Below, one piece after another: positions 3,646 to 33,599 of a stretch of DNA of 33,599 bases. The notes below the pieces were generated by a model. It had not been told where the DNA came from, did not search any database, and was given only the letters and a program-made list of their open reading frames with translations. The DNA is from an uncultured Candidatus Saccharibacteria bacterium (lineage in GTDB: Bacteria; Patescibacteriota; Minisyncoccia; Phycocordibacterales; PALSA-1337), in NCBI GenBank assembly GCA_964441635.1, contig CAYTUZ010000002.1:1-33599 (forward strand). The letters run 5' to 3'. Both the position numbers and the translations under genes were made by a program. Position 1 is the stretch's first letter. Each line of letters opens with the position of its first letter.

Positions 3646-5601
3646 ATGGATGAAGACCGCGTCACATACTTTGGCGAAACTGACGCCCGCAACAAACGGG
3701 TGAAATTTGGCATCAAAGCCAAAGATCGCACCAAGCACGTCTATGTCATCGGCAAAACTGGCATGGGCAAGTCCACGTTGCTCGAGAATATGGCCGTGCA
3801 GGATATCCAAAGCGGCGAAGGTATGTGCTTTATCGATCCTCACGGCAAGACCGCCGACCTGCTTCTAGAATACGTTCCCAAAGAGCGTATCAACGATGTT
3901 ATCTACATCGCGCCTTTTGATGTCGAACATCCTATTTCATTCAATGTCCTCGAAAGTGTTGACCCTGACAAAAAACATTTGGTGGTTTCTGGGTTGATGA
4001 GTACATTCAAGAAAATCTGGGTGGACGCTTGGTCGGCACGCATGGAATATATTTTGACCAATACCCTCCTCGCTCTTCTCGACTATCCCGGCTCGACCTT
4101 GCTTGGCGTGAATAGAATGCTTTCCGACAAAGAATATCGGAAGGAAGTTGTTTCCAAAATTTCCGATCCGTCGGTCAAGTCTTTCTGGACCAAAGAATTT
4201 GCCGGCTACACCGAGCGCATGGCGGCAGAGGCTGTGCCTGCCATACAAAACAAAGTCGGCCAATTCACTGCCAATCCTCTGATCAGGAATATGATCGGCC
4301 AGCCGGAATCATCTTTTGATTTCCGCAAAGCCATGGACAGCCGGAAGATCATCATCATCAACCTTTCCAAGGGCAGGATCGGTGACGAGAACATGAAGCT
4401 CTTGGGCGGCATGTTGGTCACCAAGATATATCTCTCGGCCATGTCACGCGCTGACCTCACTGACCGCACCATGAAGGTCATGCCGAACTTCTATCTCTAC
4501 GTCGACGAATTCCAGAACTTTGCCAATGCTTCCTTCGCGGATATTCTCTCCGAAGCGCGCAAATATAAGTTGAACCTAACCATCGCGCACCAATATATCG
4601 AGCAGATGGATGAACAAGTCCGTGCGGCGGTTTTCGGCAACGTCGGCACCATGATCATCTTCCGTGTGGGCGCAACCGACGCCGAAATTCTGGAAAAAGA
4701 AGTTTCGCCGACATTCACTATCGAAGACTTGGTCAATCTGGGCTTCGCGCAAATTTACTTGAAGTTGATGATCGACGGCCTGACTTCTTCACCATTTTCT
4801 GCTACGACTTTGGCGCCGATCATTCATCCGGACATTTCGCATATGGAAGAGATTATCGCCGCATCTCGCCGTCAATTTGCGCAATCGCGCGAGAGTGTCG
4901 AGAAACGTATCATAGAATTTCACGAGCCGATAAAGAAAATTATTCCTCCAGCTGTTCCGCCAACTGTTCCGCCGACAGCTTCTCCGACTGTATCTACCAA
5001 CATGCCATTCAAGGCCGCATTATCGACTCCTGTTGTCACTCAGGCTCCAATCCCAGCCCATGTGCCGCCACATGCGAAAATTCCCGACAACAAACCAACC
5101 TATATCAGAAAAACTCCATATCACGAGAAAATACCACAACCTCCAGCTTCCAAGGCCGACTTGAGCGCGGCCATTTCCGCGGCTGTTGCCAAAGGTCCGC
5201 CGGTCATTGCCAAAACTCCGGAAAAACCTGCAGAAAAGCCCATAGAAAAAACTGTGGAGAAAGCTCCTATAAATCTCATTTCTAAAACTCCAGAAAAAGA
5301 ACCGAAGCCGTTATCACTCGATGCTTTGAAAGTGGTTGAAAGGCCGGTTGATGTCAAAATGCAGACCGAAGAAAATTTAGGTCACCTAAAGAGCGCTCTG
5401 GCAGCCGCTTTGCGAAAGGGACAATTGAAAGAATTTCAGTTGGAGCCGCAAGAAGGAATGAAAACAAGCGAACCTGACACTGAAGAATTTGCACCAGCTA
5501 CCCCTGTCACAGCTACGAGTACACCTATCGCCGAGACGAGAAAAGAGTTACCAAGGGAAGTGCCCGAAGCAGTCTTGAAAAACGTGCTCAAAGTAGACTA
5601 G
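3646..5601 (+). CDS. VirD4/TraD/TrwB-like (type IV coupling protein-like) P-loop ATPase with a ~230-aa Pro-rich C-terminal extension
   Basis: Walker A GKTGMGKST. Walker B-like FYLYVDEFQNF. LNLTIAHQYIEQM motif. Overall HerA/FtsK-superfamily layout. The C-terminus is PPAVPPTVPPTASP... KTPEKPAEKPIEK low complexity. Confidence 0.7.
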   Translation: MDEDRVTYFGETDARNKRVKFGIKAKDRTKHVYVIGKTGMGKSTLLENMAVQDIQSGEGMCFIDPHGKTADLLLEYVPKERINDVIYIAPFDVEHPISFNVLESVDPDKKHLVVSGLMSTFKKIWVDAWSARMEYILTNTLLALLDYPGSTLLGVNRMLSDKEYRKEVVSKISDPSVKSFWTKEFAGYTERMAAEAVPAIQNKVGQFTANPLIRNMIGQPESSFDFRKAMDSRKIIIINLSKGRIGDENMKLLGGMLVTKIYLSAMSRADLTDRTMKVMPNFYLYVDEFQNFANASFADILSEARKYKLNLTIAHQYIEQMDEQVRAAVFGNVGTMIIFRVGATDAEILEKEVSPTFTIEDLVNLGFAQIYLKLMIDGLTSSPFSATTLAPIIHPDISHMEEIIAASRRQFAQSRESVEKRIIEFHEPIKKIIPPAVPPTVPPTASPTVSTNMPFKAALSTPVVTQAPIPAHVPPHAKIPDNKPTYIRKTPYHEKIPQPPASKADLSAAISAAVAKGPPVIAKTPEKPAEKPIEKTVEKAPINLISKTPEKEPKPLSLDALKVVERPVDVKMQTEENLGHLKSALAAALRKGQLKEFQLEPQEGMKTSEPDTEEFAPATPVTATSTPIAETRKELPREVPEAVLKNVLKVD

Positions 5602-7658: not shown

Positions 7659-8204
7659 ATGGCCGATAAAAAGACAATAGACCAACGTGTTGCAGATTAC
7701 GATCAGATAAAGCATGAAGCTTCTGATCTTTACAACACCTTTGTCTCTGTTGATTGTGCAGCTCTTGGTCAAAAAGTCGATTTTACTTCAGAGGGATTCA
7801 ATCATCTTGTTTATTCTGCACCCAAGAAGATGAGAGATAAAAGAGCTCAAATACTTCGTTTTGACATGCTCTCAAAAGCAAAATTTATTCTCGAAACATC
7901 GACTACGTTTCAAGAATATGAGGAAGAAATTATCAACAAAAGAGTTAACCGAAATGGCCATTGGGTTCCGAAAAGTGTTTTAGTTTGTCGCTGGGGATTT
8001 GTGGCAATAATACAAAAGTTTCGCGTAAAAGTCGTAGTTACCAAAGAAAGCAATGGGGCTGTAAAATTTCTTAGTGTTGCACCGGCTTGGCTAACAAAAT
8101 GGTACAGGAATATCAAGATTATAGAGACATCTGTGGGAAAAGGTTTAAATAATTCTGATGATGAGGAGGTACTAAAAAACGCCACAATAAGTGACGCCTT
8201 TTAG
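7659..8204 (+). CDS. Hypothetical protein, 181 aa
   Basis: Clean ORF with a plausible promoter. The VDFTSEGFNHLVY segment is only faintly reminiscent of small phage-associated nuclease-like domains, so no function is assigned. Confidence 0.6.
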   Translation: MADKKTIDQRVADYDQIKHEASDLYNTFVSVDCAALGQKVDFTSEGFNHLVYSAPKKMRDKRAQILRFDMLSKAKFILETSTTFQEYEEEIINKRVNRNGHWVPKSVLVCRWGFVAIIQKFRVKVVVTKESNGAVKFLSVAPAWLTKWYRNIKIIETSVGKGLNNSDDEEVLKNATISDAF

Positions 8205-11024: not shown

Positions 11025-12038
11025 ATGGCCAAGAATTTGCTCATGATATCTATAGATCGCAAAATCTTCGAAGCAGGAAGCAACGTGCGCGCGCGCCAGA
11101 TCGAATATGCCAAAAGTTGGGATGAGGTTCACATTATCGTTGCAACTGATAGAAGTTATAAAGAGGTACACATTGCGCCCAATATCTGGGTTTATCCTAC
11201 ACGGTCATTGTTCAAGGTACTGTATCCTTTTGATGCTATTCGCCTCGGCAAATTCATCGCCAAAAGAAAAAATATTCAGCAAATTACTTGCCAAGATCCA
11301 TTCCTCACTGCAATGGCTGGCGTGACTTTGAAAAAGGAATTAAAAATTCCATTAGAAATTCAAATTCACACTGACATTGGCAGTCCAAATTATACTTATA
11401 CGCTTCTAAATAAAGTCAGAAAATATCTGGCACTTTCATACCTGCCAAGAGCTGACCACATTCGAGTTGTATCTCAAAGGGTGAAGGATTATTTGATGAC
11501 TGTCATTCCCGCGAAGGCGGGAATCCAGGATTTCATTACCGTACGTCCTATTGCTGTTGATACCGAATGGATAGTGAATACACCTATTATGATTGATTTG
11601 CACCATAAATATCCGCAGTTTGAAAAAATCGTGCTCATGGCTTCACGGCTGGAAAAAGAGAAAAATATCGAGCTGGCAATAAATTCATGGCCAAAAATAC
11701 TGGAAAAAATTCCAAAAGCAGGGCTTATTATTGTCGGTGCAGGATCAGAGGAAGCATCGCTTCGTAAACAAATCGCGAGGTGCGACCTCGAGAAGTCAGT
11801 CATAATCGAACCTTGGGCTCCAAAACAAATCCTCGCTTCTTATTACAAAACCGCGGATGCATTCTTGAACACTTCATTATTCGAAGGTTACGGTATGGCC
11901 TTGGTAGAAGCCAAAGCAGCGGGATGTCTCGTCATTTCAACCGACGTAGGCATTGCCAATGAAGTTGGCGCGACGATTATTAATTTTGATGAGAGTGATG
12001 TGGCGGAGAAGATTATTAAAATACTAAAAAGTGTCTAA
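11025..12038 (+). CDS. Glycosyltransferase family 4
   Basis: C-terminal FEGYGMALVEAKAAGCLVISTDVGIANEV motif. ATG 11025 lies 1 nt after the upstream stop. The track start at 10827 overlaps the previous gene. Confidence 0.8.
   Translation: MAKNLLMISIDRKIFEAGSNVRARQIEYAKSWDEVHIIVATDRSYKEVHIAPNIWVYPTRSLFKVLYPFDAIRLGKFIAKRKNIQQITCQDPFLTAMAGVTLKKELKIPLEIQIHTDIGSPNYTYTLLNKVRKYLALSYLPRADHIRVVSQRVKDYLMTVIPAKAGIQDFITVRPIAVDTEWIVNTPIMIDLHHKYPQFEKIVLMASRLEKEKNIELAINSWPKILEKIPKAGLIIVGAGSEEASLRKQIARCDLEKSVIIEPWAPKQILASYYKTADAFLNTSLFEGYGMALVEAKAAGCLVISTDVGIANEVGATIINFDESDVAEKIIKILKSV
11505..11524. repeat. GC-rich hairpin ATTCCCGC-GAAG-GCGGGAAT inside the CDS (encodes VIPAKAGIQ)
   Basis: Perfect 8-bp stem with a 4-nt loop, read directly. 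The host frame stays open. Confidence 0.6.
11776..11790. repeat. Short palindrome CGAGGT-GCG-ACCTCG (possible member of the GAGGT/ACCTC palindrome family)
   Basis: Shares the CGAGGT...ACCTCG arms with 21511-21546 and 24476-24490. A stem this short could be chance on its own. Confidence 0.3.
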
Positions 12039-12055: not shown

Positions 12056-12544
12056 ATGATTAACTGGACCAAAAACAAATATAAGGAATTGGATCAGAAA
12101 TACGCTACACACATGAAGGTTGTGCGTTATATGATTTCTGGTAGCACGGCGGCAGCTGTAGATTTGATTGTTCTATATATTCTCACGGGCGTCTTCGGAA
12201 TGTGGTATGTGATATCAACGCCAATCGCCTTCATCGTTGCTTTTGGCGTGAGTTTTTCGATGCAAAAATACTGGACTTTCAGGGACCATTCGACCGATGA
12301 CGTTGCCAAGCAGGGTACATTATATTTTGTTATTAGCGCGATAAATATGGCAATCAACTCCTTTCTAGTGTTCATTTTCACTGAATTTACACGAGCTCAC
12401 TTTAGTAATCTTCCAACTCTGGTCGAGAAACATGACTATCTTATTTCGCAGATTGTCGCGGCACTTTTGATTGCCATCGCAAGTTTCTTTGTTTATCAGA
12501 AGTTTGTCTTCAATCGTAAGCCGCAAATAGCACCAAAAGCATGA
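12056..12544 (+). CDS. GtrA-family membrane protein (polyprenyl-phosphate-sugar translocation family)
   Basis: VVRYMISGSTAAAVDLIVLYILTGVFGMWYVISTPIAFIVAFGVSFSMQKYWTFRD matches the GtrA-like signature. Four TM helices. Confidence 0.8.
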   Translation: MINWTKNKYKELDQKYATHMKVVRYMISGSTAAAVDLIVLYILTGVFGMWYVISTPIAFIVAFGVSFSMQKYWTFRDHSTDDVAKQGTLYFVISAINMAINSFLVFIFTEFTRAHFSNLPTLVEKHDYLISQIVAALLIAIASFFVYQKFVFNRKPQIAPKA

Positions 12545-13776
12545 AATTATTAGTTGTTACACAAGCAGTAGATGAGGACAATTCCGTATTGGCTTTTTTC
12601 CATGAATGGATCAAGGAATTTGCCAAGAATTGCGAACAGGTCACGGTTATTTGTCTCCAAAAAGGAAGGTATGAATTACCAAGCAATGTTAAAGTCGTGT
12701 CGCTTGGCAAGGGACGTGACTTTCTCGACCACGGAAAATTTCCTGCAGGAAATTTTCCTAGTCCTCGGAAATTTTCTGGTGAAAATTTCCTGCGTATGGT
12801 CTCGAAAATCACGTCCTTTGCCAAGCTCTGTTATGTAATCAATTTCTACAGATTTATTTTTCGTGAGCGAAAAAACTACGATGCGGTTTTTGTACACATG
12901 AATCCGATTTATGTGGTCCTAGGAGGCATCCTGTGGAAAAGCTGGGGAAAACCTGTGGGTATGTGGTATACGCATCGGAATGTTGACTTGAAGTTGAAGG
13001 TTGCCGAAAAACTGTCAAACGCCGTATTTACGGCCTCAAAAGAGAGTTTTTCACTACCAAGTAAGAAGGTAGTTATTGTGGGTCATGGCATTGATGTCGC
13101 TCGATTTGCAAATGTTAAAAGAGCCAAAGAATTGGGCATAGAACCGATCCGAATAATTTCTGTTGGCCGAATTACAGCTATAAAGAATTGCGATGTTTTG
13201 GTTGAGGCAGCTAGAATTCTGAAGGATAAGTGGCAGAAACAATTTGAAGTTTTCCTGATCGGTGCAGCTGTCACAACCGAAGACCAGTCGTATGAGCATA
13301 AGATCAAGAATCTGATTGACGCTTATGATTTGGAGAATATTGTGAAGTTGACTGGTAATATTTCGGCCGAAGAAATGCCTTTGCATTATTCGATGGCGGA
13401 CGCTTCGGTAAATTTGACCCCGACTGGCGGAGTTGATAAAGCGGTTTTGGAATCGATGGCTGCGGGTGTGCCGGTATTTTCGTCAAATAAGACTTTTACA
13501 GATTATTTTGGTTCGTACGCTGAAGATCTTATTTTCCAAGAAAAAAATGCGGTAGATTTGGCAGACAAAATCATGAAATTATTCTCGGGCAATCAGCTGG
13601 CAGAGCTTAGCGAATCTGAAAAGAAAACCGCGCGCGAACGAGCGGACGTTTCAGCTTTAATCTTGATGGTCGTGACGCAGATGTCCCTACTTCGCTCCTC
13701 GCAGACTCCTTCTTCGCCAAGGCTTCGAAGGACAAGTCGGAGCTACGCAGGGCAAGCTGACGTTGTTAAAAAGTAA
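12541..13776 (+). CDS. Glycosyltransferase family 4 carrying an in-frame palindromic insert and a repeat-derived C-terminal tail
   Basis: MKLLVVTQAVDEDNSVLAFFHEWIKEFA N-terminus and GGVDKAVLESMAAGVPVFSS C-domain. ATGA overlap with the GtrA gene. Confidence 0.8.
   Translation: MKLLVVTQAVDEDNSVLAFFHEWIKEFAKNCEQVTVICLQKGRYELPSNVKVVSLGKGRDFLDHGKFPAGNFPSPRKFSGENFLRMVSKITSFAKLCYVINFYRFIFRERKNYDAVFVHMNPIYVVLGGILWKSWGKPVGMWYTHRNVDLKLKVAEKLSNAVFTASKESFSLPSKKVVIVGHGIDVARFANVKRAKELGIEPIRIISVGRITAIKNCDVLVEAARILKDKWQKQFEVFLIGAAVTTEDQSYEHKIKNLIDAYDLENIVKLTGNISAEEMPLHYSMADASVNLTPTGGVDKAVLESMAAGVPVFSSNKTFTDYFGSYAEDLIFQEKNAVDLADKIMKLFSGNQLAELSESEKKTARERADVSALILMVVTQMSLLRSSQTPSSPRLRRTSRSYAGQADVVKK
12702..12826. 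repeat. Compound palindromic element, copy 1 (MITE/RPE-like)
   Basis: Inverted outer arms plus two internal perfect hairpins at 12733-12758 and 12767-12790. The core is repeated at 19298-19396. Confidence 0.85.
13685..13752. repeat. Imperfect GC-rich hairpin forming the last ~25 codons of the GT4 gene
   Basis: Paired segments CCCT/AGGG, GCTCC/GGAGC, TCCTTC/GAAGGA and GCC/GGC, separated by near-symmetric internal loops. Encodes LLRSSQTPSSPRLRRTSRSYAGQA. Confidence 0.45.
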
Positions 13777-16000: not shown

Positions 16001-16969
16001 ATGAACAAGTTCCTGTCCGTTCAGAATAAAACAAAAGTAAATTGCATTATCTGTGGAAATGTTGCGAATTTTTTGATGGAAAAAGACGGCTATTTTATCT
16101 ATGAATGTCCGAAGTGCCGTTTGTCATTTGTTCATCCTCAACCCGCGGTGTCATTTCTAGAAGAAGAAGTTTATTCCGAAAAATCTGGTTATCAAGGAAA
16201 TAAACTAAAGGATCTTTCGAGAGTCGCGCCGACCAAAAAGCAAGCAAAAGTCTTGAATTATTTGAGAAGCCAAAACAAAGGCAAATTCTTGGACGTGGGT
16301 TGTTCCAGTGGCGAGTTTATGTATTTTGCAAAAAAGCTTGGCTTTGAAGTAGTTGGCGTGGAAATAAATCCGCGCACAGCTGCTATTGCCAAAGCGAATC
16401 GCTTGAATGTAATTCTTGGCACATTGGAACAAGCGCGTTTTCCAGATCATTCATTCGACTACGTCCATATGGGCGATTTGATTGAACATGTTACGGATCC
16501 ACGAGCTCTGATCAAAGAGACACATAGGATTTTGAAACCAAATGGTAGCCTGATAATTGTCACTCCTAATATGGATTGTTTTTGGGCAAAAGCGACATTC
16601 TTCTTATTCCGACTTTTCAAACTCCCTTGGAGTTCGGCAACACCTCCACATCACCTATTTCAATTTTCTATAAGTAATTTGAGGACTCTTTTGGAACAAG
16701 AAGGTTTTAGTTTTGGAAAAGTTTGGTTTACCGGCACACCAAGCTTGAAATACGAATTGGGTTCGCTTCACCTCCTCAAAAAGTGGAAAAATCAACACAG
16801 TCTTCCCAATTTATTCTGCATGATTTTTGGTTTTGGTTTGTACTCAATCGTATTTGGAATTAATCGGATCGTCGAATTGTTTCCAGTTAAAAGATTTAGT
16901 ATGGCGGTGGTGTTTGTGTTTTCCTCCTCCGAAGCCGAGGATGTCTCTCGCGCCGTAGAAAATGCTTAA
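16001..16969 (+). CDS. Class I SAM-dependent methyltransferase with an N-terminal Cys4 zinc ribbon
   Basis: CIICGN...CPKCRLSF ribbon. SAM motif I FLDVGCSSGEF. Motifs DYVHMGDLIEHV and LKPNGSLIIVTPN. The last ~22 codons lie in the left arm of the 16904-17185 inverted repeat. Confidence 0.8.
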   Translation: MNKFLSVQNKTKVNCIICGNVANFLMEKDGYFIYECPKCRLSFVHPQPAVSFLEEEVYSEKSGYQGNKLKDLSRVAPTKKQAKVLNYLRSQNKGKFLDVGCSSGEFMYFAKKLGFEVVGVEINPRTAAIAKANRLNVILGTLEQARFPDHSFDYVHMGDLIEHVTDPRALIKETHRILKPNGSLIIVTPNMDCFWAKATFFLFRLFKLPWSSATPPHHLFQFSISNLRTLLEQEGFSFGKVWFTGTPSLKYELGSLHLLKKWKNQHSLPNLFCMIFGFGLYSIVFGINRIVELFPVKRFSMAVVFVFSSSEAEDVSRAVENA

Positions 16970-17185
16970 CAAAATGCGAGTCTCGCTAGGAATTGTTGAG
17001 ATCGCGGCACTTTTTTATTTCATTGAAAAAATATTAAAGAAGTGCTTTGCAACATTCCGAGATGACAGGGATTTTTTCAATGAAATAAAAAAGTGCCGCG
17101 ATCTCAACAATTCCCGAGCATTTTGTTTAGCATATTTCCGGCGCGAGTTACGCAGACGAGGAAGACGAGACACAAACACCACCGC
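16904..17185. mobile_element. 282-nt inverted-repeat element (MITE-like)
   Basis: Identical 16-nt termini: GCGGTGGTGTTTGTGT at 16904-16919 and its reverse complement at 17170-17185. 44-bp perfect inner arms at 16989-17032 and 17071-17114 around a 38-nt loop. The middle parts of the arms are diverged but alignable. Confidence 0.6.
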
Positions 17186-17202
17186 TGTGCAATAATACTC
17201 GT

Positions 17203-18255
17203 ATGTTAAAAGTCTTCATCGGCCAACCCATTCCCAATTTGCCGATAGCTGACGTTATTCGGCCCAATTTTGGCGCGGTTGGACTGGATCGTTGGACGGA
17301 GCGTCATGTGCAGTTGAATACGCCGGTTCTTGAATTGGTAAAAACTCCAGAGGAAGCTGATTTCCTATTAATTACGCACAATTACAATGCCGTGTGTGGC
17401 AATGCGGAATATTTGCGCTCTTTCAAAACTCTTTCAAGGAAGTTAAATAAAAAAGTTATAGTTTTCTTTCCGGGCGATTCCAGTCAAGAAGTACCCATTG
17501 AAAATGCTATAGTCTTCCGGAATTCCCAGTATCGTTCCACTTTGAAAAAGAATGAGATTATTCTTCCCGGCTTTGTGGAAGATCTGGGTGCGAATCTTGA
17601 ATTGAAACCAAGAATGAAATCCAATGACAAAGCAACAGTCGGTTTTTGTGGCTGGGCAGACTTTCATTCAACAGCAGACTATCTCAAATTTTGGGCCAAA
17701 TCCTTGCCAACCACTTTGGCTTCATTATTCAATCGGAAGGTTTTGATTAAGCAAAAGGGCCTGTGGTGGCGCCGGAAAGTGATAAAAAACCTCTCGAATT
17801 CAAAGAAAATCAATACCAACTTTATTATTCGCAAAAGTTATTCTGGTAACGAAAAAACTATTGAACTCGATCCTAGAATAGCGAGACAAGAATACATTGA
17901 CAACATTCTTGGATGTGATTTCACACTCTGCATAAAAGGCGATGGTAATTTTTCCACCAGATTTTTTGAGACCTTGTCGCTTGGTAGGATTCCACTTCTC
18001 GTCGACACAGAATGTGTTTTGCCACTGGAGGAAGTCATCGATTATTCACAGATCATTTTAAGAGTGAATTGGAAAGATCTAAGTAAACTCGATTCCATAG
18101 TCGCGGATTTCTACGCCAAAGTGACTCCTGACCAATTCTCGGAAATGCAAAAGAAAGCGAGGGAAACTTTTGAAAAATATTTGAGGCTGGATGCTTATTT
18201 CAAAACTATCAGTAAAAAAGAATATTATGAAAAAGGCAATGCAATGGCTCATTAA
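17203..18255 (+). CDS. Exostosin-family (GT47-like) glycosyltransferase
   Basis: KGDGNFSTRFFETLSLGRIPLLVDTECVLPLEEVIDY matches the exostosin C-terminal signature. Confidence 0.65.
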   Translation: MLKVFIGQPIPNLPIADVIRPNFGAVGLDRWTERHVQLNTPVLELVKTPEEADFLLITHNYNAVCGNAEYLRSFKTLSRKLNKKVIVFFPGDSSQEVPIENAIVFRNSQYRSTLKKNEIILPGFVEDLGANLELKPRMKSNDKATVGFCGWADFHSTADYLKFWAKSLPTTLASLFNRKVLIKQKGLWWRRKVIKNLSNSKKINTNFIIRKSYSGNEKTIELDPRIARQEYIDNILGCDFTLCIKGDGNFSTRFFETLSLGRIPLLVDTECVLPLEEVIDYSQIILRVNWKDLSKLDSIVADFYAKVTPDQFSEMQKKARETFEKYLRLDAYFKTISKKEYYEKGNAMAH

Positions 18256-19795
18256 AAACAAAAAAGAGCTGATCGTGACGTCGCTTTTTTGCGCCGCCTT
18301 ATTTTTCAGTACCTACAAACTCAGTGAAAGTCCGCCAACATGGCTCGATGAAGGCATGATCGTGCAAACATCAAAGACTCTGGTTGAAGAAGGAGTCTAT
18401 TCCGTAAAAGTTGCGCCTGACACGTATATTTCTCCGGGTTTCATTTCCACAAGTTACCCTGTGACATTTCCAATCGCATTATCTTTCAAACTCTTTGGCG
18501 TTGGTTTGCTTCAAGCCAGAAGTGTAATGGTTATTTATATTTTAGCATTTCTTTTATCGATTTATTTTCTAGCAAAAAGACTTTTCAAGAATGAATGGCT
18601 AATGATCGCCGGTTTGGCGCTATTGGTCAGTTTTCCGCCACTTTATGGCAATGGCAAAAACGTGCTTGGCGAAGTCCCCGGGCTTTTCTTCTTGACGGTG
18701 TTTTTGATATTCATCGACCGGATTTGGAAAGGCGACCGGCGCATTTCACAATTCATTCTTGCCGGCTTGACACTGGGCCTTTGTATTGCCACCAAGCCGA
18801 TTTTTATTTTACTGCTTCCTGTTGTGGCAATGTGGCTCTTATACGTCTGGTTAAAAAAGCCTGAAGTTTTTGGTCGTGGCATAATCAAAAACAGCTTATA
18901 TTTTATTGTTTGCGCATTGTTACCGCTCGTCGCATGGATAATGATCCAGTTTCGTGGTGATTCGTTTGTCGCAACTCTTTCTTATTACGCGAATCCGCAC
19001 AGTGTAAATTTGGCGACATCTTTGCTCTCGAATATAAAAGCTTTTTTGACGGCGCCGGAATCGTTGTATTTCTTTGCTCTTTATTTGGTTTGGTTGACGG
19101 CGGTCACATTCAGAGTTTGGTCCAAAAAGAATATCGAAGTCGCGGAATTGGTCGCTTTTGGTTTTTCCACCCTAGTTTTACTGGCATATTTTAGAAATCC
19201 GGCTTATTATCGCTATTTTTTCTTGGCGGAGGTTTATTGCTTGTTATTCTTTGTGCAAACACTTAACTTTATTATTGGGACGCGCCCGAAGGCGGCCGAT
19301 GTGACTTCCTCGACCACGGAAAATTTCCTGCAGGAAATTTTCCTACGGAATTTTCTGGTGAAAATTTCCTGCGTATGGTCTCGGAAATCACATCGGCCGC
19401 TTTCGGGCGCTGGCATCTCAATATTTGTTATTGTGTTTGCACTTATTATTTTCCAATCCTACCAACTCCTTTTTCATTCTTGGGTTTCGCAATATTATGG
19501 CAGTACCAAAACTCGCGATTGTGTCGCGGCTATCGGAAAAATTCCGCAAGCAAAATCCATTTTCTTTTATCAAGATCCGGAACTGGTTATTTTCCGCGCT
19601 GGCGGCAATTATTACCAATATATGGATAGCATCGAAACCGATCAGAGCCGCACTGAAAAGAAGCGCTTGATCAAACAAGGGGTTCCGGATATTGTGGCGG
19701 TTTCGAGTGAAATAATGCCGCAAATACAGGATATTTTGGAGAAATACGTCTCATCGAGTTCTTGTGACCGATATCAGATATTGAATAAGAAATAG
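18227..19795 (+). CDS. GT-C fold membrane glycosyltransferase (ArnT/PMT-like, GT39/GT83-type)
   Basis: More than 10 TM helices. First-loop acidic motif PPTWLDEGM, typical of polyprenyl-phosphate-sugar-dependent GT-C enzymes. The start is ambiguous (18191, 18227 or 18239) and overlaps the upstream gene. Confidence 0.7.
   Translation: MKKAMQWLIKNKKELIVTSLFCAALFFSTYKLSESPPTWLDEGMIVQTSKTLVEEGVYSVKVAPDTYISPGFISTSYPVTFPIALSFKLFGVGLLQARSVMVIYILAFLLSIYFLAKRLFKNEWLMIAGLALLVSFPPLYGNGKNVLGEVPGLFFLTVFLIFIDRIWKGDRRISQFILAGLTLGLCIATKPIFILLLPVVAMWLLYVWLKKPEVFGRGIIKNSLYFIVCALLPLVAWIMIQFRGDSFVATLSYYANPHSVNLATSLLSNIKAFLTAPESLYFFALYLVWLTAVTFRVWSKKNIEVAELVAFGFSTLVLLAYFRNPAYYRYFFLAEVYCLLFFVQTLNFIIGTRPKAADVTSSTTENFLQEIFLRNFLVKISCVWSRKSHRPLSGAGISIFVIVFALIIFQSYQLLFHSWVSQYYGSTKTRDCVAAIGKIPQAKSIFFYQDPELVIFRAGGNYYQYMDSIETDQSRTEKKRLIKQGVPDIVAVSSEIMPQIQDILEKYVSSSSCDRYQILNKK
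19282..19410. repeat. Compound palindromic element, copy 2
   Basis: Same core as 12716-12814 with 2 substitutions and 5-nt plus 1-nt indels. The outer arms are GCGCCCGAAGGCGGCCGATGTGA / TCACATCGGCCGCTTTCGGGCGC. Confidence 0.85.
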
Positions 19796-20788: not shown

Positions 20789-21928
20789 ATGAAGATAATT
20801 TATTTAGCTGACATACGCCTACCCACGGAAAAAGCTCACGGTTTTCAAATCATGAAGACCTGCGAGGCTTTGGTGCGAGTGGGGAACGAGATCACGCTTA
20901 TGATTCCTTCTTGGAACAAAGCGACTCCGGAGGAAATATTCAAATATTATGGTTTGACGCAAAGCTTCTCAATTGAGAAAATTCCTCAGACAAAATTCAA
21001 TCTCATAAAATTTGGATCAATTGGTTTTGCTTTGCGATCATATTTTTTTGCCAAAAAAGCAGCTGGCAAATTGGGGGGTCGTGAGTTTGACGCTGTTTAC
21101 ACCAGAGATGAAGCAGTTGCGGTATACAGAGGTCCGACCTCTGTATTTTATGAGATGCATGACGTGAGAAAGGGTCTTCTTCAAAAGAAGGCGATGACTC
21201 GCGCATCTGGAATCATTGCTATTTCTAATGGGCTAAAAGATTATTGTGTTGCGCAGGGAATTGATCAATCGAAAATAACGGTTGTGCCTGATGCGGTTGA
21301 TCTGGAAGAATTTGATATCGAACAAAACAAGGACGATGTCCGACATCGCCTAGGTTTACCAAAAGATAAGAAAATTGTTCTTTATTCCGGGCATTTGTAT
21401 TCTTGGAAAGGCGCTGACACTCTGGCGGAAGCCGCACATTATTTGGATGCCGATACCGTCGTCGTATTTGTCGGCGGTACACCTTGGGATATTGAATCTT
21501 TCAAAAATAAATATCGAGGTGCCACCTCGAGGTGCCACCTCGATATTATTGGCCAGAAACCCCACTCAGAGATTCCTTTGTATCTGAAAGCCGCTGATGT
21601 TCTAGTATTGCCAAATAGCGCCAAAGAAGACATTTCGCGGCTTTACACTTCACCGGTGAAGCTCTTCGAATACATGGCATCCGGCGTGCCGATCGTGGCT
21701 TCGGACTTGCCCTCGATCCGAGAAATCTTGAACGAGGAATGTGCGGTTTTTGCCAAACCTGACGATGCTCTGTCGCTCGCCGAGAAAATCAAATATTCTT
21801 TGGCTAATGTTTCCAAAGCTGTTATACTCTCTAATCGAGCGCTTGAAGAGGTCAAAAAATATTCTTGGGGCATGCGTGCCAAGCATATCCTCACGTTTAT
21901 GAAGATGCGGTTGAATGCAAAGCAATAA
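20789..21928 (+). CDS. Glycosyltransferase family 4
   Basis: MKIIYLADIRLPTEKAHGFQIMKTCEAL N-domain and TSPVKLFEYMASGVPIVASDLPSIREIL C-domain. ATG is 1 nt after the upstream stop. Confidence 0.85.
   Translation: MKIIYLADIRLPTEKAHGFQIMKTCEALVRVGNEITLMIPSWNKATPEEIFKYYGLTQSFSIEKIPQTKFNLIKFGSIGFALRSYFFAKKAAGKLGGREFDAVYTRDEAVAVYRGPTSVFYEMHDVRKGLLQKKAMTRASGIIAISNGLKDYCVAQGIDQSKITVVPDAVDLEEFDIEQNKDDVRHRLGLPKDKKIVLYSGHLYSWKGADTLAEAAHYLDADTVVVFVGGTPWDIESFKNKYRGATSRCHLDIIGQKPHSEIPLYLKAADVLVLPNSAKEDISRLYTSPVKLFEYMASGVPIVASDLPSIREILNEECAVFAKPDDALSLAEKIKYSLANVSKAVILSNRALEEVKKYSWGMRAKHILTFMKMRLNAKQ
21124..21146. repeat. 23-nt palindrome ATACAGAGGTC-C-GACCTCTGTAT inside the CDS
   Basis: 11-bp arms. Bases 21126-21146 are identical to the reverse complement of 33398-33418. 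Confidence 0.8.
21511..21546. repeat. 36-nt palindrome and tandem duplication ATAT(CGAGGTGCCACCT)x2CGATAT inside the CDS
   Basis: The 13-nt unit is duplicated in tandem. The whole block is self-complementary except for the two unit centres. Encodes RGATSRCHL. Confidence 0.75.
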
Positions 21929-21932
21929 ATTC

Positions 21933-22634
21933 ATGAAAAAGGTCATTGTTCTGCCGACATATAACGAACGCAAGAATGTTCAAGAATTGATCCCACTACT
22001 TTTCCGGCACGTGCCTGACGCGGTTGTGATCGTCGTCGATGATAATTCGCCTGATGACACGGCGAAAGCAGTCGAGCTTTTGCAAACCAAATATCAAAAA
22101 CTGCTCTTGCTTCGCCGCAAAGGCAAGGAAGGACTTGGCAAGGCATATACCCACGCCTTCAAGGTAATCCTCAAAGACGCTTCAGTCGATGTAGTTATCA
22201 TGATGGACGCGGATTTTTCGCATAATCCGGAATATTTGCCGCTGATGTTAGAAAAATTGAATGAGAGCGATGTGGTTATCGGTTCGCGCTACATCGCAGG
22301 CGGCGCAACTAGCGGCTGGGAATTGTGGCGCAGATTTCTGTCGCGCAGCGCAAACTTTTATTGCCGCCTGATCACCGGCATGCCGATCAATGATTGCACT
22401 GGCGGCTTCAATGTCATGCGCGCGGAAACTATGCGCAAGCTCGATTTGGACAAGCTCGACCTCTCGGGTTACGCTTTTATTATGGAACTCAAATATGCTT
22501 TTCATAGGGTTGGCGCGCGTTTTGCCGAACATCCTATAGTTTTTGCCAACCGCAAGGAAGGCGAATCGAAAATGTCGAGCCATATTATCCGCGAAGGCGT
22601 ACTCGCGCCTTGGAAAATGAGGCTAAAAAAATGA
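21933..22634 (+). CDS. Polyprenol-phosphate mannose synthase-like GT2 (Ppm1/DPM1-type, no TM segment)
   Basis: VIVLPTYNERKNV, VVDDNSPDDT, MDADFSHNPEYLP and GSRY motifs. An alternative ATG at 21915 overlaps the upstream gene. Confidence 0.8.
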   Translation: MKKVIVLPTYNERKNVQELIPLLFRHVPDAVVIVVDDNSPDDTAKAVELLQTKYQKLLLLRRKGKEGLGKAYTHAFKVILKDASVDVVIMMDADFSHNPEYLPLMLEKLNESDVVIGSRYIAGGATSGWELWRRFLSRSANFYCRLITGMPINDCTGGFNVMRAETMRKLDLDKLDLSGYAFIMELKYAFHRVGARFAEHPIVFANRKEGESKMSSHIIREGVLAPWKMRLKK

Positions 22635-23497
22635 ATTCTGCCTGCATTGTCTGTGCGAACAAAAAACATTCTCCGTATGCCACCAAAAGCGGTTACGAAG
22701 TCTGGAAGTGCGCGCAGTGCGGAACACTTTTTTTGTATCCACTTCCAAAAGCCGAAGAAGCGGCGGCTGTGTACAGTCAAGACTATTTTGGCGGCGCTCT
22801 CGATGGCCACGGCTATGTGAACTATGACGCTGACAAAGAAGCGATGCGAACGATTTTCATTCGGCATCTTATTCACTTCGAAAAGTTATTGGGCAAGCCC
22901 GGGAAAATACTGGACGTAGGTGCAGCCACAGGTTTTTTTATGAAGATAGCAAAAACGCGCGGTTGGCAGGTTCATGGTGTTGAAATCTCTGCTTACGCGG
23001 CAGAGCAGGGCAGAAAAGACGGCCTAGATATTGTTACCGGAACTCTCCAAAATGTTAAGCAAACGGATAATACTTTCGATCTCATAACGATGTGGGACGT
23101 GATCGAGCATATGCCGGATCCGGTTTCAGATTTGAATCGCGTTCGTTCTTTGCTAAAGCCGGGCGGACTAGTTGCTGTGAATACCCCTGATTCCGGTTCT
23201 TTTTATTCGAAGCTGATGGGCTCGCGCTGGCATCTCTTCGTGCCGCCAGAGCACATTTGGTATTTCAACCGAAAAAGCATTGCCACACTTTTGAATAACA
23301 GTGGCTTTGAAGTCCTTGAGATCGGCTGCGTCGGTAAGAAATTCACTGTGGAATATGTAATCAATTTTCTGTATAGGTGGCAAGGATTGGTCATTTGGCG
23401 CAAGCTGTCCGACCGCTTAAAAAATACGCGCATAGGGAAACTTTATTTTTCCATTAATTTGCGCGACAACATGTATGTTTTGGCAAAGAAAAAATAA
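22631..23497 (+). CDS. Class I SAM-dependent methyltransferase with an N-terminal Cys4 zinc ribbon (paralog of 16001..16969)
   Basis: CIVCAN...CAQCGTLF ribbon. ILDVGAATGFF SAM motif. DLITMWDVIEHMPDP and LKPGGLVAVNTPD motifs. ATGA overlap with the upstream stop. Confidence 0.8.
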   Translation: MNSACIVCANKKHSPYATKSGYEVWKCAQCGTLFLYPLPKAEEAAAVYSQDYFGGALDGHGYVNYDADKEAMRTIFIRHLIHFEKLLGKPGKILDVGAATGFFMKIAKTRGWQVHGVEISAYAAEQGRKDGLDIVTGTLQNVKQTDNTFDLITMWDVIEHMPDPVSDLNRVRSLLKPGGLVAVNTPDSGSFYSKLMGSRWHLFVPPEHIWYFNRKSIATLLNNSGFEVLEIGCVGKKFTVEYVINFLYRWQGLVIWRKLSDRLKNTRIGKLYFSINLRDNMYVLAKKK

Positions 23498-30907: not shown

Positions 30908-31001
30908 GCCCACCTCGCACCGGCAAGGGAGGTGAGCTCGGCGAAGCGTTTAACAGCGTGTAGCGAGCCGAGCGAATCCCCCTTGCCGGTGCGAGGCGGG
31001 C
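30908..31001. repeat. Intergenic 94-nt GC-rich hairpin element
   Basis: 17-bp perfect stem (30913-29 with 30980-96), plus GCTCGGC/GCCGAGC (7 bp) and GCCC/GGGC (4 bp). No U-tract follows. Confidence 0.7.
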
Positions 31002-31062: not shown

Positions 31063-32016
31063 ATGAAGCTATCTATCGTTATCCCCGTCTACAACGAAGA
31101 AAAAAACCTGCCGTTATTGTTCGGCAGTTTCCAAGAGGTCTTGGCTAAAATTGGCGGAGAATATGAGATTATTGCCGTTAATGACGCTTCAAAAGACAAA
31201 AGTCTGCAAATTTTACGGAATTACGCTGCGAAAAATAAGAGCATAAAGGTTATTTCTTTTGAGCTAAATCGTGGCCAGACCGCCGCTTTACAAGCTGGCA
31301 TTTCCAATGCAACCGGCGACGTGATCATCCCCATGGATAGCGACATGGAAAATGATCCCGCGGAGATCCCAAAGCTTTTGGCAAAACTAAATGAAGGTTA
31401 TGATGTTGTGTCCGGCTGGCGCGTCGATCGATGGAAGGGCGGCCCCATGGTTTGGCTCCGCCGGCGCTTGCCTTCGGCTTGCGCGAACTGGCTCATATCC
31501 CGCATTACCAAAGTCCATTTGCATGATTACGGATGCATCATGAAGGCTTACAAAAGGAGTGTGCTAACTGGCGTGGCACTTTACGGCGAAATGCATCGTT
31601 TTATTCCAGCTTATGCTTCTTGGCATGGCGCCAGAGTGACGGAGATCCCAGTCAGGTACCAAGCGCGCAAATTTGGCAAGAGCAATTATGGCATTGGCAG
31701 GACATTCAAGGTGCTGTTGGACTTGGTGGTGATAGTATTCTTGGATAAATATATGAATCGTCCCATGCACTTTTTCGGCGGCATCGGTTTTGTATCGCTC
31801 GGCATTGGAATACTTTCCGGGCTGGTCGCAGTCTATTTGAAGATCGTGCACCTCCGTGATTTTGTTTCGACGCCCTTGCCGGTATTTTCTGCGCTATTTA
31901 CGATTGTTGGCGTGCAACTCATTGCCATGGGCATCATTGCGGAGATTCTGATGCGCACTTACTATGAATCGCAAAAGAAGACGCCGTATAATGTCGCAGA
32001 GCGGATCAATATTTAA
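31063..32016 (+). CDS. GT2 polyprenyl-phosphate glycosyltransferase (GtrB/ArnC-like) with two C-terminal TM helices
   Basis: LSIVIPVYNEEKNL, AVNDASKDKS and MDSDMENDPAEI motifs, plus two C-terminal TM helices. Confidence 0.85.
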   Translation: MKLSIVIPVYNEEKNLPLLFGSFQEVLAKIGGEYEIIAVNDASKDKSLQILRNYAAKNKSIKVISFELNRGQTAALQAGISNATGDVIIPMDSDMENDPAEIPKLLAKLNEGYDVVSGWRVDRWKGGPMVWLRRRLPSACANWLISRITKVHLHDYGCIMKAYKRSVLTGVALYGEMHRFIPAYASWHGARVTEIPVRYQARKFGKSNYGIGRTFKVLLDLVVIVFLDKYMNRPMHFFGGIGFVSLGIGILSGLVAVYLKIVHLRDFVSTPLPVFSALFTIVGVQLIAMGIIAEILMRTYYESQKKTPYNVAERINI

Positions 32017-33599
32017 ATGTGCGGCATAACCGGATTTATAGGCAAGGGCAACGAAGATACGCTTCAGAAAATGACGGCGGCAGTCAAACACCGCGGACCG
32101 GACGATACCGGTATATTTTTTGATGAACAAAAGGGAATCGGCCTCGGCCATGCACGGCTTTCGATCCTTGATGTTAGCGCTGCCGGTCACCAGCCGATGT
32201 GGAGCAGTGATAAGCAGATTGCTATTGTATTTAACGGCGAGATATACAATTTCCAAGAACTAAAAACAGAATTGAAAGCACACCATGGTTGCCGATTTGA
32301 AAGCACGTCCGATACCGAAGTCATAATTTACGCCTATAAAGTTTTTGGCGAGAAGTGCTTCGAGAAAATGGAAGGCATGTTCGCCATCGCGATTTACGAT
32401 TTTCCAAAGAATCGGCTGATTTTGGCTCGCGATCGCGCGGGCAAAAAACCGCTTTACTGGACGCTTACGAATGGCACGTTTATTTTTGGCTCGGAATTGA
32501 AATCGTTGGTATTGCATCCTGCTTTCAAAAAAGAGCTTGACCTAGAATCAGTCAACAAGTATTTGCAATTTGACTACGTGCCAACACCACATACCATCTG
32601 GAAAAACGTGCACAAACTCGAACCGGCATCTTACATGGTTTTTGAAGCGGGTAAGATCAGAAAAGCAGAATATTGGTTGCCGAAGTTCGAGGAAACGAAG
32701 CTATCATTTGCTGAAGCAAAAAAGCGGTTAGGTGCGATGATCGCAGAATCGGTCAGTAACCGTCTAGTTGCCGATGTGCCCGTGGGCGTATTTCTTTCTG
32801 GCGGCCTAGACAGCTCGACGATTGCTTATTACGCGAAGCAGCAAAGCAAAAGTAAAGTCAAAACGTTTTCTATTGGTTTTCAGGAAAAAAGCTTTGATGA
32901 ATCGAACTATGCCCGCGAAGTCGCTACATTTTTGGGCACAGAACATTATGAGAAAATATTTACCAGTGCGGATTGTATCAGTGTTATTCCCGAAGTCCTG
33001 AATGCGCTCGATGAACCCATGGCGGATGCTTCGATAATTCCCACGTACTTGCTTTCGCAATTTGCCAGAGAATATGTGACCGTTGCTTTGGGTGGCGACG
33101 GCGGTGACGAACTATTTGCTGGCTATCCAACATTCCAAGCGGAAAAACTGCTCACAATATACAAAAAAGTACCGGCAATGTTGAGGAGTAGAGTCATTGA
33201 ACCCTTGATAAGAGCGTTGCCTTCGTCGGCCAATAACTTTAGTCTCGATTTTAAGTTGAAGAAATTCCTTGAAGGTGTCAATGCTTCTAATTCACACAGG
33301 CATCAGGTTTGGCTCGGCTCCTTCAACAGAGAAGAACGTTCACAACTCTTCAAACCCGAAGTGTGGAATAGGCTCGAAAACAATAATGAGTTTGAAGATA
33401 CAGAGGTCGGACCTCTGTTGTACCAATATGAGAGGACTTATTTGATGGATGAAGTCTTGGTCAAGGTCGATCGCGCGACTATGCTCGCATCACTCGAAGC
33501 GAGGTCGCCTTTTTTGGATTATAGGATTGCGGATTTCGCCCATTCATTGCCTTATGATTTCAAAATCAAAGGTTTCAAAACCAAATACATATTGAAAAA
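32017..33599 (+). CDS. asnB: Asparagine synthase (glutamine-hydrolysing) family amidotransferase, 3' end cut by window edge
   Basis: Not in the ORF track because there is no stop in the window. I read the frame as open from ATG 32017, directly after the upstream TAA. MCGITGFIG Ntn nucleophile, SGGLDSST PP-loop and VALGGDGGDELFAGY motifs. Confidence 0.85.
   Translation, partial: MCGITGFIGKGNEDTLQKMTAAVKHRGPDDTGIFFDEQKGIGLGHARLSILDVSAAGHQPMWSSDKQIAIVFNGEIYNFQELKTELKAHHGCRFESTSDTEVIIYAYKVFGEKCFEKMEGMFAIAIYDFPKNRLILARDRAGKKPLYWTLTNGTFIFGSELKSLVLHPAFKKELDLESVNKYLQFDYVPTPHTIWKNVHKLEPASYMVFEAGKIRKAEYWLPKFEETKLSFAEAKKRLGAMIAESVSNRLVADVPVGVFLSGGLDSSTIAYYAKQQSKSKVKTFSIGFQEKSFDESNYAREVATFLGTEHYEKIFTSADCISVIPEVLNALDEPMADASIIPTYLLSQFAREYVTVALGGDGGDELFAGYPTFQAEKLLTIYKKVPAMLRSRVIEPLIRALPSSANNFSLDFKLKKFLEGVNASNSHRHQVWLGSFNREERSQLFKPEVWNRLENNNEFEDTEVGPLLYQYERTYLMDEVLVKVDRATMLASLEARSPFLDYRIADFAHSLPYDFKIKGFKTKYILK
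33398..33418. repeat. Palindrome ACAGAGGTC-G-GACCTCTGT inside asnB (reverse-orientation copy of 21126-21146)
   Basis: Exact 21-nt reverse-complement match to the GT4-gene copy. Confidence 0.8.

Follow-up and report, generated by a model that had tools for sequence, protein, structure and literature searches.

How does a quasi-palindrome of 282 nt come to close a bacterial gene, in a stretch of DNA that encodes no transposase? The question is raised by a contig of an uncultured Candidatus Saccharibacteria bacterium (CAYTUZ010000002.1, assembly GCA_964441635.1), whose 33,599 nt analysed here are referred to as the window. At positions 16904..17185 (no strand; 282 nt, equal to 94 codons) the palindrome occupies the junction between the gene of a class I S-adenosylmethionine-dependent methyltransferase (MT; 16001..16969, + strand, 322 aa) and that of a GT47/exostosin-like glycosyltransferase (17203..18255, + strand). 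The original prediction, made from the letters of the sequence, had offered a miniature inverted-repeat transposable element (MITE) or a very long structured transcript; the explanation that we favour, tentatively and a little short of calling it probable, is a young and apparently single-copy composite hairpin, produced by nested insertion, the arms of which were extended and homogenised by template switching.

The palindrome is real, far beyond chance and no artefact of assembly. Its inner arms (16989-17032 and 17071-17114, 44 nt each) are 100% complementary around a spacer of 38 nt, its outer termini (16904-16919 and 17170-17185, 16 nt each) are likewise 100% complementary, and a middle pair of 19 nt (16959-16977 and 17118-17136) is 89% complementary; the coordinates and sequences first reported for the termini and for the 44-bp arms with their 38-nt loop proved exact on recheck. 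In the predicted fold 114 of the 141 possible pairs are formed, and the RNA fold of 16890-17200 reaches -158.1 kcal/mol, against -75 +/- 4.8 kcal/mol for dinucleotide shuffles (z = -17.3; 0 of 100 shuffles equal it), the DNA fold of the same segment reaching -104 kcal/mol (z = -18.4). Another four ENA metagenome assemblies, of four samples, contain the palindrome (L001, L002, L003 and L018), and over the five assemblies in total its sole difference is a single-nucleotide polymorphism (SNP), G17006T in L001, which lies in the left inner arm and is uncompensated. A very long structured transcript would be physically plausible according to these folding models, the structure being too young and too lineage-restricted for covariation; Rfam gave no match at its gathering thresholds and, at an E-value threshold, generic long-hairpin (plant miRNA) matches only, such as MIR2646 with 62.6 bits against a gathering score of 245.

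The outermost arms of this structure are host sequence. Read in the MT frame, the left outer arm GCGGTGGTGTTTGTGT (16904..16919, + strand) is GCG GTG GTG TTT GTG (T), that is A V V F V, the last conserved beta-strand of the family and not a terminal inverted repeat (TIR) borne by an element; indeed, AVVFV fits the C-terminal motif F-x-M-[ATV]-[LVI]-[VI]-[AFY]-x-K-[KRS]*, obtained from a survey of 70 homologues and a protein alignment. Homologues end in FSMALVFVKRK* (P0005), FGMAMVFVKS* (P0015) or FSMALVFHSRA* (P0001), and at the AVVFV position the orthologous DNA reads GCATTGGTGTTTCAT (GCA TTG GTG TTT CAT) in L004, the locus from GCA_964555555.1 (71% aa identity), and GCGCTGGTGTTCGTA (GCG CTG GTG TTC GTA) in locus L008. 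Since the left 16-mer consists of conserved MT codons, the right outer arm ACACAAACACCACCGC (17170..17185, + strand), an exact inverted copy of those last conserved codons, placed 17 nt upstream of the GT47 start codon, is an inverted duplicate of host coding sequence.

Beyond these codons the C-terminus of the MT has been rewritten by the hairpin. It had been claimed that the left arm supplies the last ~22 codons and the stop; this holds for ~16 residues (FSSSEAEDVSRAVENA) and the stop, which are genuinely new, and not for the first five, AVVFV, which are conserved MT codons. The protein has thereby lost the usual 2-4 basic terminal residues and gained an acidic tail of ~16 residues, with the stop codon within the left arm. 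The 120 MT homologues listed cover ~90% of the query, are mostly 297-305 aa long, are all shorter at the C-terminus and stop 2-4 residues past the conserved hydrophobic strand; those with a named lineage come from Paceibacterota, Zambryskibacteria, Parcubacteria and Minisyncoccia, which places the organism itself among the Patescibacteria. The MT paralog of the window (22610..23497), described as ending about where the element begins, ends instead ~3 codons past the position equivalent to AVVFV. Two further observations concern this gene and its flank. In sample ERZ27245399 (L018 8848-8850, window 16346) the MT carries the nonsense mutation G16346T (GAA to TAA), which leaves open reading frames (ORFs) of 115 and 203 aa beside an unchanged hairpin; this allele may hint at relaxed constraint on the MT, which could be dispensable to this population or in decay there. 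On the other side of the palindrome the right flank 17189-17204 (GCAATAATACTCGTAT, which would encode AIILV) has the same 16-nt purine/pyrimidine pattern as the left terminus GCGGTGGTGTTTGTGT at 16904-16919, with 8 transitions and 0 transversions, a post hoc match with a background of 2.3e-5 per position pair; an exact deletion of the 282 nt gives the open frame ..FSM-CAIILVC*, whose stop overlaps the ATG of the GT47 gene.

The surrounding genes all run in one direction and belong to glycosylation: they encode glycosyltransferases (GT4, GT2 and GT47), a PMT_2 mannosyltransferase, GtrA, MBOAT and two class I methyltransferases, and the order at the junction can be followed in relatives. The start of the GT47 protein, MLKVFIG, is conserved in orthologues, and in relatives it overlaps or closely follows the MT stop: in five orthologous loci (L004, L008, L010, L011 and L013) the distance from the MT stop to the next gene is 79, -4, 35, 35 and -1 nt, against 233 nt here, and all five lack the palindrome. 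As judged from these comparisons, the palindrome is a young, lineage-specific gain at the MT/GT47 junction; both the shorter C-termini of the listed homologues and the element-free loci agree with the insertion at the gene end that had been proposed. It had also been reasoned that a hairpin single-copy in all related genomes and conserved in position with the MT C-terminus would point to a locus-specific regulatory role; the palindrome is single-copy as far as seen, but its position is not conserved in relatives, so that it is neither a demonstrated mobile element nor a conserved regulatory hairpin.

Internally, the 282 nt are best divided in two. The inner palindrome, Y (16989..17114, no strand), comprises 126 nt, has 44-bp perfect arms around the 38-nt loop and a GC content of 34.9%, and lies in the apical loop of an outer hairpin, X (156 nt), with a GC content of 51.9%, the window average being 44%. 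The left middle arm of X (16920..16988, + strand) contains the new MT tail and its stop TAA (16967-16969), together with mini-palindromes and indels relative to the right arm (CCTCC..GAGG, GCGAGTCTCGC); the right middle arm (17115..17169, + strand) shares with it the blocks CTCGCGCCG and AACAAAATG. When the left arm is aligned with the reverse complement of the right one, identical blocks of 16 nt, CTCGCGCCG, AACAAAATG and 44 nt are recovered, between which lie four small indels, a single substitution and a diverged block of 22-28 nt, in keeping with the first description of the middle of the arms as diverged but alignable. X by itself is a long hairpin (-80.9 kcal/mol, z = -9.7) with Y at its apex, and the simplest description is that an older, GC-richer palindrome carries at its apex a young, AT-rich one. 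Local alignments of the arms with the MT tail and spacer of L004 are no better than those of shuffles (p = 0.04-0.26), and a match of the arms to L004 (TCTCGCGC/SRA) is accordingly a lead only.

Long hairpins are a feature of the whole cluster: inverted repeats with arms of at least 30 nt number four in the window, against none in ~60 kb of syntenic clusters of relatives. Hairpin B1 (12702-12826, ~125 nt) lies in frame in a GT4 gene (12541..13776) and adds 30 aa relative to the L004 orthologue, and hairpin B2 (19282-19410, ~125 nt) is translated in frame in the PMT_2 gene. The two share a core of ~100 nt with 91-96% identity, fold with -69 and -87 kcal/mol (z ~ -11) and entered their genes in different reading frames, with four of six open; outside the shared core their arms run on as locus-specific inverted repeats. 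The four arm substitutions that distinguish B1 from B2 resolve, without remainder, into two pairs of compensatory changes (C-G to T-A and T-A to C-G), and the arms therefore co-evolve, by homogenisation or by selection for pairing. The outer arms of B1 are made of conserved codons, SLGK and (F/L)AKL. In the L004 orthologue of the GT4 gene, without a B insert, a 10-bp inverted repeat (GCTTGGCAAG-15 nt-CTTGCCAAGC, L004 2960-3010) stands where B1 sits, and the more distant orthologues L010, L011 and L013 lack it; the sequence suggests either targeting of a hairpin loop or a remnant of element loss. Whether loops served as entry points or the arms grew outwards into flanking DNA, the base of the B1 hairpin consists of host sequence, as does that of the 282-nt palindrome. 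A six-frame query with family B returned only the two window proteins among 5.8 billion, and the family is therefore low-copy and local, not genome-wide.

Shorter hairpins occur as well. A REP-like family, C (ATTCCCGC-N4-GCGGGAAT; REP, repetitive extragenic palindromic), is found at 11498-11530 of the window, at 2262-2291 and 6920-6956 of L004 and in loci L005-L007. In the window it takes the place of a protein loop in a GT4 gene (..MTVIPAKAGIQD..); in L004 it takes up the spacer between MT and GT47 and provides another glycosyltransferase with its C-terminus (..SRLRGNDTK*). Hairpins have therefore landed repeatedly at gene ends in this clade. The tail of the L004 MT, HSRA* (TTTCATTCTCGCGCG), also resembles a half-copy of the family C hairpin.

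In the history that we favour, the outer quasi-palindrome X (156 nt) has as its base the MT's last conserved codons paired with their inverted copy, and the AT-rich Y (126 nt), which would be the younger, occupies the apical loop of X; the inner sequences would have inserted into a hairpin loop that was already there, or have grown from it, and Y likewise with respect to X. Intra-strand template switching, in which one arm serves as the template for the other, would most likely have built the arms and preserved their symmetry, a transposase acting on element-borne terminal repeats being less likely than such arm-copying. This history is supported by the host codons in the outer arm of the palindrome, by the contrast of X and Y in arm perfection and GC content, by the compensated arm changes of B1 and B2 in the same genome, by the host-codon base of B1 and the inverted repeat of L004 at that site, by the four long inverted repeats of the window and by its lack of a transposase or recombinase. 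Template switching is described as homogenising and expanding the arms of inverted repeats, up to 48 bp (PMC13100816, PMC8604942), and the correction and expansion of quasi-palindromes by this route are an established mechanism (Ripley 1982 and Lovett, as cited in PMC13100816; PMC8604942). The likeness lies in one arm being kept and the other rewritten as its complement, with perfect arms of tens of bp, and arm-copying of this kind would explain both the presence of host codons on the left with an exact inverted copy on the non-coding side and the compensated changes of B1 and B2. The difference lies in scale, since documented expansions amount to tens of bp (arms of at most 48 bp) and start from local sequence, whereas ~250 nt lie here between the host-derived arms.

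Several points weigh against the composite, template-switched hairpin. Counted as events, the arm differences are ~6 in the 88-nt middle and 0 in the 60 perfect nt, which is marginal (p ~ 0.04), and a single old palindrome is compatible with so marginal an unevenness of the arms. Neither X nor Y has significant similarity to the orthologous spacer or to anything else searched. The element is present in one sequence state plus one SNP, too little variation for covariation to show, and template switching at this locus is a proposed process. The readable part of the organism's genome amounts to ~34-37 kb, perhaps 4% of a genome of the Candidate Phyla Radiation (CPR), and a low-copy family elsewhere in it is possible. 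Finally, the L004 inverted repeat at the B1 site could be the remnant of an element that was lost.

The alternative that survives best, unlikely though it seems to us, is a single-step fold-back in situ: replication or repair would have folded back at a small hairpin of the ancestral MT-GT47 spacer and laid down an inverted copy of the upstream spacer and of the final codons of the MT, foreign DNA playing no part, and the middle arms would have acquired their indels later. The inverted copy of native codons at the right terminus is what such an event would leave, the element is single-copy everywhere searched and, once the diverged block is taken out, both arms read AVVFV-SRA..., recalling the ALVFHSRA* of the closest orthologue. 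That resemblance, however, is not significant against shuffles (p = 0.04-0.26), and the SRA codons of L004 themselves look like half of a REP-like repeat; moreover, fold-back would need an ancestral spacer of ~130-150 nt, where the five orthologues have at most 79 nt, and it leaves unexplained why Y and X differ in GC content (35% vs 52%) and in having perfect and degenerate arms, respectively.

A classical MITE appears to us distinctly unlikely. It would be a non-autonomous element, either the 282 nt ending in 16-bp TIRs of their own or Y ending in TIRs of 44 bp, which depended on an insertion sequence (IS) elsewhere in the genome for its mobility and which inserted at the 3' end of the MT gene. 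The size is appropriate, both the 282-nt element and the 126-nt Y falling within the 50-500 bp given for MITEs (PMC10969869), and the AT-richness of Y, the stable hairpin in the transcript and the location at a gene 3' end are typical (PMC10969869, PMC5896051). The internal ORFs, of 77 and 55 aa, have no credible homologue, other repeated hairpin families exist in the genome, and exact removal of the 282 nt restores the open frame described above. As to inverted ends borne by the element itself, Y alone has them, 44 bp long and perfect; the ends of the 282-nt unit are the AVVFV codons, so that GCGGTGGTGTTTGTGT cannot be regarded as its own TIR, as had been supposed. No direct-repeat target-site duplication is seen at the outer flanks (..TTTAGTATG / TGTGCAATA..) or at those of Y (..TCTCGCTA / CGAGCATT..); such duplications may decay with age (PMC10969869), and direct similarity is limited to the post hoc purine/pyrimidine match of 17189-17204 described above. 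The 33.6-kb window encodes no transposase, integrase, recombinase, invertase or reverse transcriptase, and the protein domains and annotations of its genes bear out the earlier statement that it holds no transposase.

The search for further copies, which had been proposed as a check, also bears on the MITE. No second copy turned up in the window, in the 18 fetched loci or in any collection searched: exact 20- to 23-mers from the arms of Y and X found no relatives in JGI metagenomes or IMG/VR, and k-mers matched among one genome per GTDB species a single Gemmatimonadales contig, on one strand only and by chance. With blastn no match to the element was obtained among plasmids and phages, and with short words the same program, run on the window and on every fetched locus, yielded nothing beyond chance matches of at most 15 nt; some 3 kb of sequence extending past one edge of the window also contained no copy. 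Among 5.8 billion proteins, a chimeric query made of the six translated frames of the element had no match at E <= 10, a search blind to copies that overlap called genes by less than ~30 residues. On these collections and the ~4% of this organism's genome that can be read, membership of the MITE class is not established for the 282-nt element.

Other known classes were considered and set aside. The attC sites of integrons are recognised by R'' (RYYYAAC) and R' (GTTRRRY) cores, a length of 57-141 bp, a cassette array and a nearby IntI; here GCTTAAC (16963-16969, which holds the MT stop) fits R'', but the symmetric GTTTAGC (17125-17131) departs from R' at position 4. The sites lie within a span of 169 nt (43 nt if Y is left out), the genes follow the order of a conserved glycosylation operon and there is no integrase. 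An in-frame insert like the Rickettsia palindromic elements (RPEs) does not apply, the MT frame stopping 66 nt into the palindrome and not being translated through it, and a retron-like reading finds no reverse transcriptase in the window. REP sequences and bacterial interspersed mosaic elements (BIMEs) are ruled out by the 282 nt and the single copy, these being palindromes of 20-40 bp, present in high copy number and often with a GTAG or CGTC tag (PMC3733652).

Doubtful to about the same degree as a MITE is a cis-regulatory RNA or DNA structure under selection, acting in processing or stability, as terminator or attenuator, or as promoter context; being a statement on present function, it is compatible with any origin. 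The extreme fold, the position inside a co-directional operon and the compensated arm changes of the sister hairpins B1 and B2 would suit it, and RNase III processing has been proposed for the enhC mRNA extended by QMITE2 (PMC5896051). At the right end, a weak sigma-70-like match (17167..17196, + strand; GAGACA-18-AATAAT with an upstream TG) spans the right outer arm and its flank, as a match to consensus only. No conserved regulator is to be seen, however, as the element is missing from all orthologous loci, Rfam returned only generic long-hairpin matches far under the gathering scores, a SNP of the population breaks a pair without compensation, and the MT is nonsense-mutated in one sample. 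A consensus scan for intrinsic terminators found no stem followed by a T-run in 16904-17185 on either strand, which is weak evidence as the scan admitted loops of 3-8 nt only.

Far less likely is an inverton, in which the 16-bp inverted repeats would be recombinase sites that flip a 250-bp segment upstream of the glycosyltransferase gene, with phase variation as the outcome. The 250-bp segment is indeed bounded by perfect 16-bp inverted repeats and lies immediately upstream of a glycosyltransferase gene, within a polysaccharide locus, with a promoter-like match at the right end and a reverse reading from that end open for 55 or more codons; yet all five assemblies have the same orientation, easily told from the asymmetric middle arms, no invertase is encoded in the window, and the interior being itself palindromic, a flip would change little. 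An assembly or library artefact, namely a fold-back chimera, is scarcely credible: although a single project and a single assembler (k141 contig names) lie behind all the assemblies, the five are independent and identical base for base save for one SNP, the imperfect arms with indels are unlike those of chimeric fold-backs, and the neighbouring reading frames are intact.

In its workings the palindrome resembles the hairpin MITEs of gene 3' ends, such as the QMITEs, ERIC and Correia elements. The nearest are QMITE1 and QMITE2 of Coxiella burnetii, hairpin inserts of 100-300 nt whose predicted transcripts reach -193 kcal/mol; the functional genes that they affect are always affected at the 3' end, in one case with the final 33 residues and the stop codon contributed by the insert, and QMITE2 hairpins are in turn targets of IS1111, which gives nested structures (PMC5896051). 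The QMITEs are present in 45-78 copies per genome and have their own TIRs and direct repeats of 7-9 bp (PMC5896051). The 282-nt palindrome is similarly a stable, nested hairpin at a gene 3' end that supplies a tail and a stop; unlike the QMITEs, it is present in one copy, has no direct repeats and has an outer 'TIR' of host codons. The RPEs are multi-copy palindromic inserts inside ORFs, translated in host proteins, with 44 insertions in R. conorii (PMC10969869). Their likeness is to the neighbours B1 and B2, in frame and with four of six frames open; the 282-nt palindrome, in contrast, stands at the end of an ORF, terminates it and belongs to no family. IS1397 and ISKpn1 insert into the loops of REPs and are full IS elements with transposases. 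The position of Y in the apex of X, and that of B1 in the loop of a 10-bp inverted repeat uninterrupted in the orthologue, resemble such targeting, with the differences that REPs are short (20-40 bp) and high-copy and that the inserts there are full IS elements. The ERIC (enterobacterial repetitive intergenic consensus) and Correia elements are imperfect palindromes of 100-150 nt, co-transcribed in operons, which alter mRNA stability and sometimes the ends of genes; they are multi-copy, duplicate a TA target and have family consensus sequences. An imperfect palindrome within an operon is common to them and to this locus; multiple copies, a TA duplication and a family consensus are not found here. 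ERIC is also mentioned in PMC10969869. Searches of the literature gave no report of palindromic or MITE elements in CPR/Patescibacteria.

Whatever its origin, the structure may have consequences for expression. Translational coupling between the MT and GT47 genes has presumably been lost. A polycistronic transcript would carry a hairpin of about -150 kcal/mol that includes a 44-bp perfect duplex, a candidate substrate of RNase III, and the same hairpin may act as a barrier to exonucleases and ribosomes, decoupling the expression of the two halves of the operon. At the DNA level, the palindrome could extrude as a hairpin or cruciform.

If the composite, template-switched hairpin is the true explanation, the locus is a natural example of a long palindrome whose base was recruited from the host gene's own codons, and evidence that template switching, beyond transposition alone, can build MITE-like hairpins of hundreds of bases in bacteria. 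A structure here rewrites the C-terminus of a protein and probably breaks the translational coupling of an operon, and for annotation it is a caution that inverted ends are insufficient to define a MITE. Taken with the in-frame B1 and B2, it suggests that hairpin DNA is reshaping the genes with which an ultra-small symbiotic bacterium glycosylates its surface. It may further be speculated, as a rather improbable extension, that this Paceibacteria-type lineage seeds and grows long palindromes independently of transposases: loops and short coding inverted repeats would serve as entry points, inserts would be copied between nearby hairpins, and arms would be extended into host sequence and kept symmetric by template switching, the outcome being four long hairpins in ~19 kb of a cell-surface glycosylation operon, by which loops and ends of proteins are rewritten. 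Were this the case, it would amount to hairpin-driven diversification of proteins and operons in the CPR, which would have gone furthest in the 282-nt element with its double nesting. The practical impact is modest, as one locus in one lineage is concerned and functional roles are inferred only; what interest remains lies mostly in the pattern over the whole cluster, a CPR glycosylation operon with long hairpins of which some are in frame.

Minor features of the window complete the picture. The 77-aa ORF at 16962..17195 (+ strand) is judged spurious: it has no match in 5.8 billion proteins and no Pfam match, is not called in ENA annotations, and gave among 1.84 billion representatives one compositional match, to a K-rich repeat protein (E = 2.7e-4). 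That it was probably spurious had been rightly supposed, in view of the absence of a credible homologue and of public annotation; its placement wholly inside the element has to be corrected, as it ends at 17195, 10 nt past the palindrome. Hairpin D (30908-31001), intergenic and ahead of a GT2 gene (31063..32016), is a GC-rich imperfect palindrome of 94 nt with 35-nt arms 86% complementary (-78 kcal/mol, z = -8.9), identical in the ENA assemblies and in one JGI assembly (L014-L016). A small hairpin, ACAGAGGTC(C/G)GACCTCTGT, occurs twice, at 21126-21149 and 33395-33418, one of the two in a GT4 gene, where it encodes ..YRGPTSV..; the same gene also has at 21510-21547 a spacerless palindrome of 38 nt (ATCGAGGTGCCACCTC|GAGGTGCCACCTCGAT, 95% complementary), which encodes ..YRGATSRCHLD.., and both sit at loops variable with respect to orthologues. 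The GT4 gene that carries B1 (12541..13776) has in addition a C-terminal extension of ~25 aa (13690-13776, ..SLLRSSQTPSSPRLRRTSRSYAGQADVVKK), not in the L004 orthologue and with no significant hairpin (z = -0.5). Upstream of the glycosylation cluster, at 3646-5601 and 7659-8204, are encoded a VirD4/TraG-like type IV coupling ATPase (a weak Pfam match) and a protein with a weak LPD3 match; this may be a mobile-element or DNA-uptake neighbourhood.

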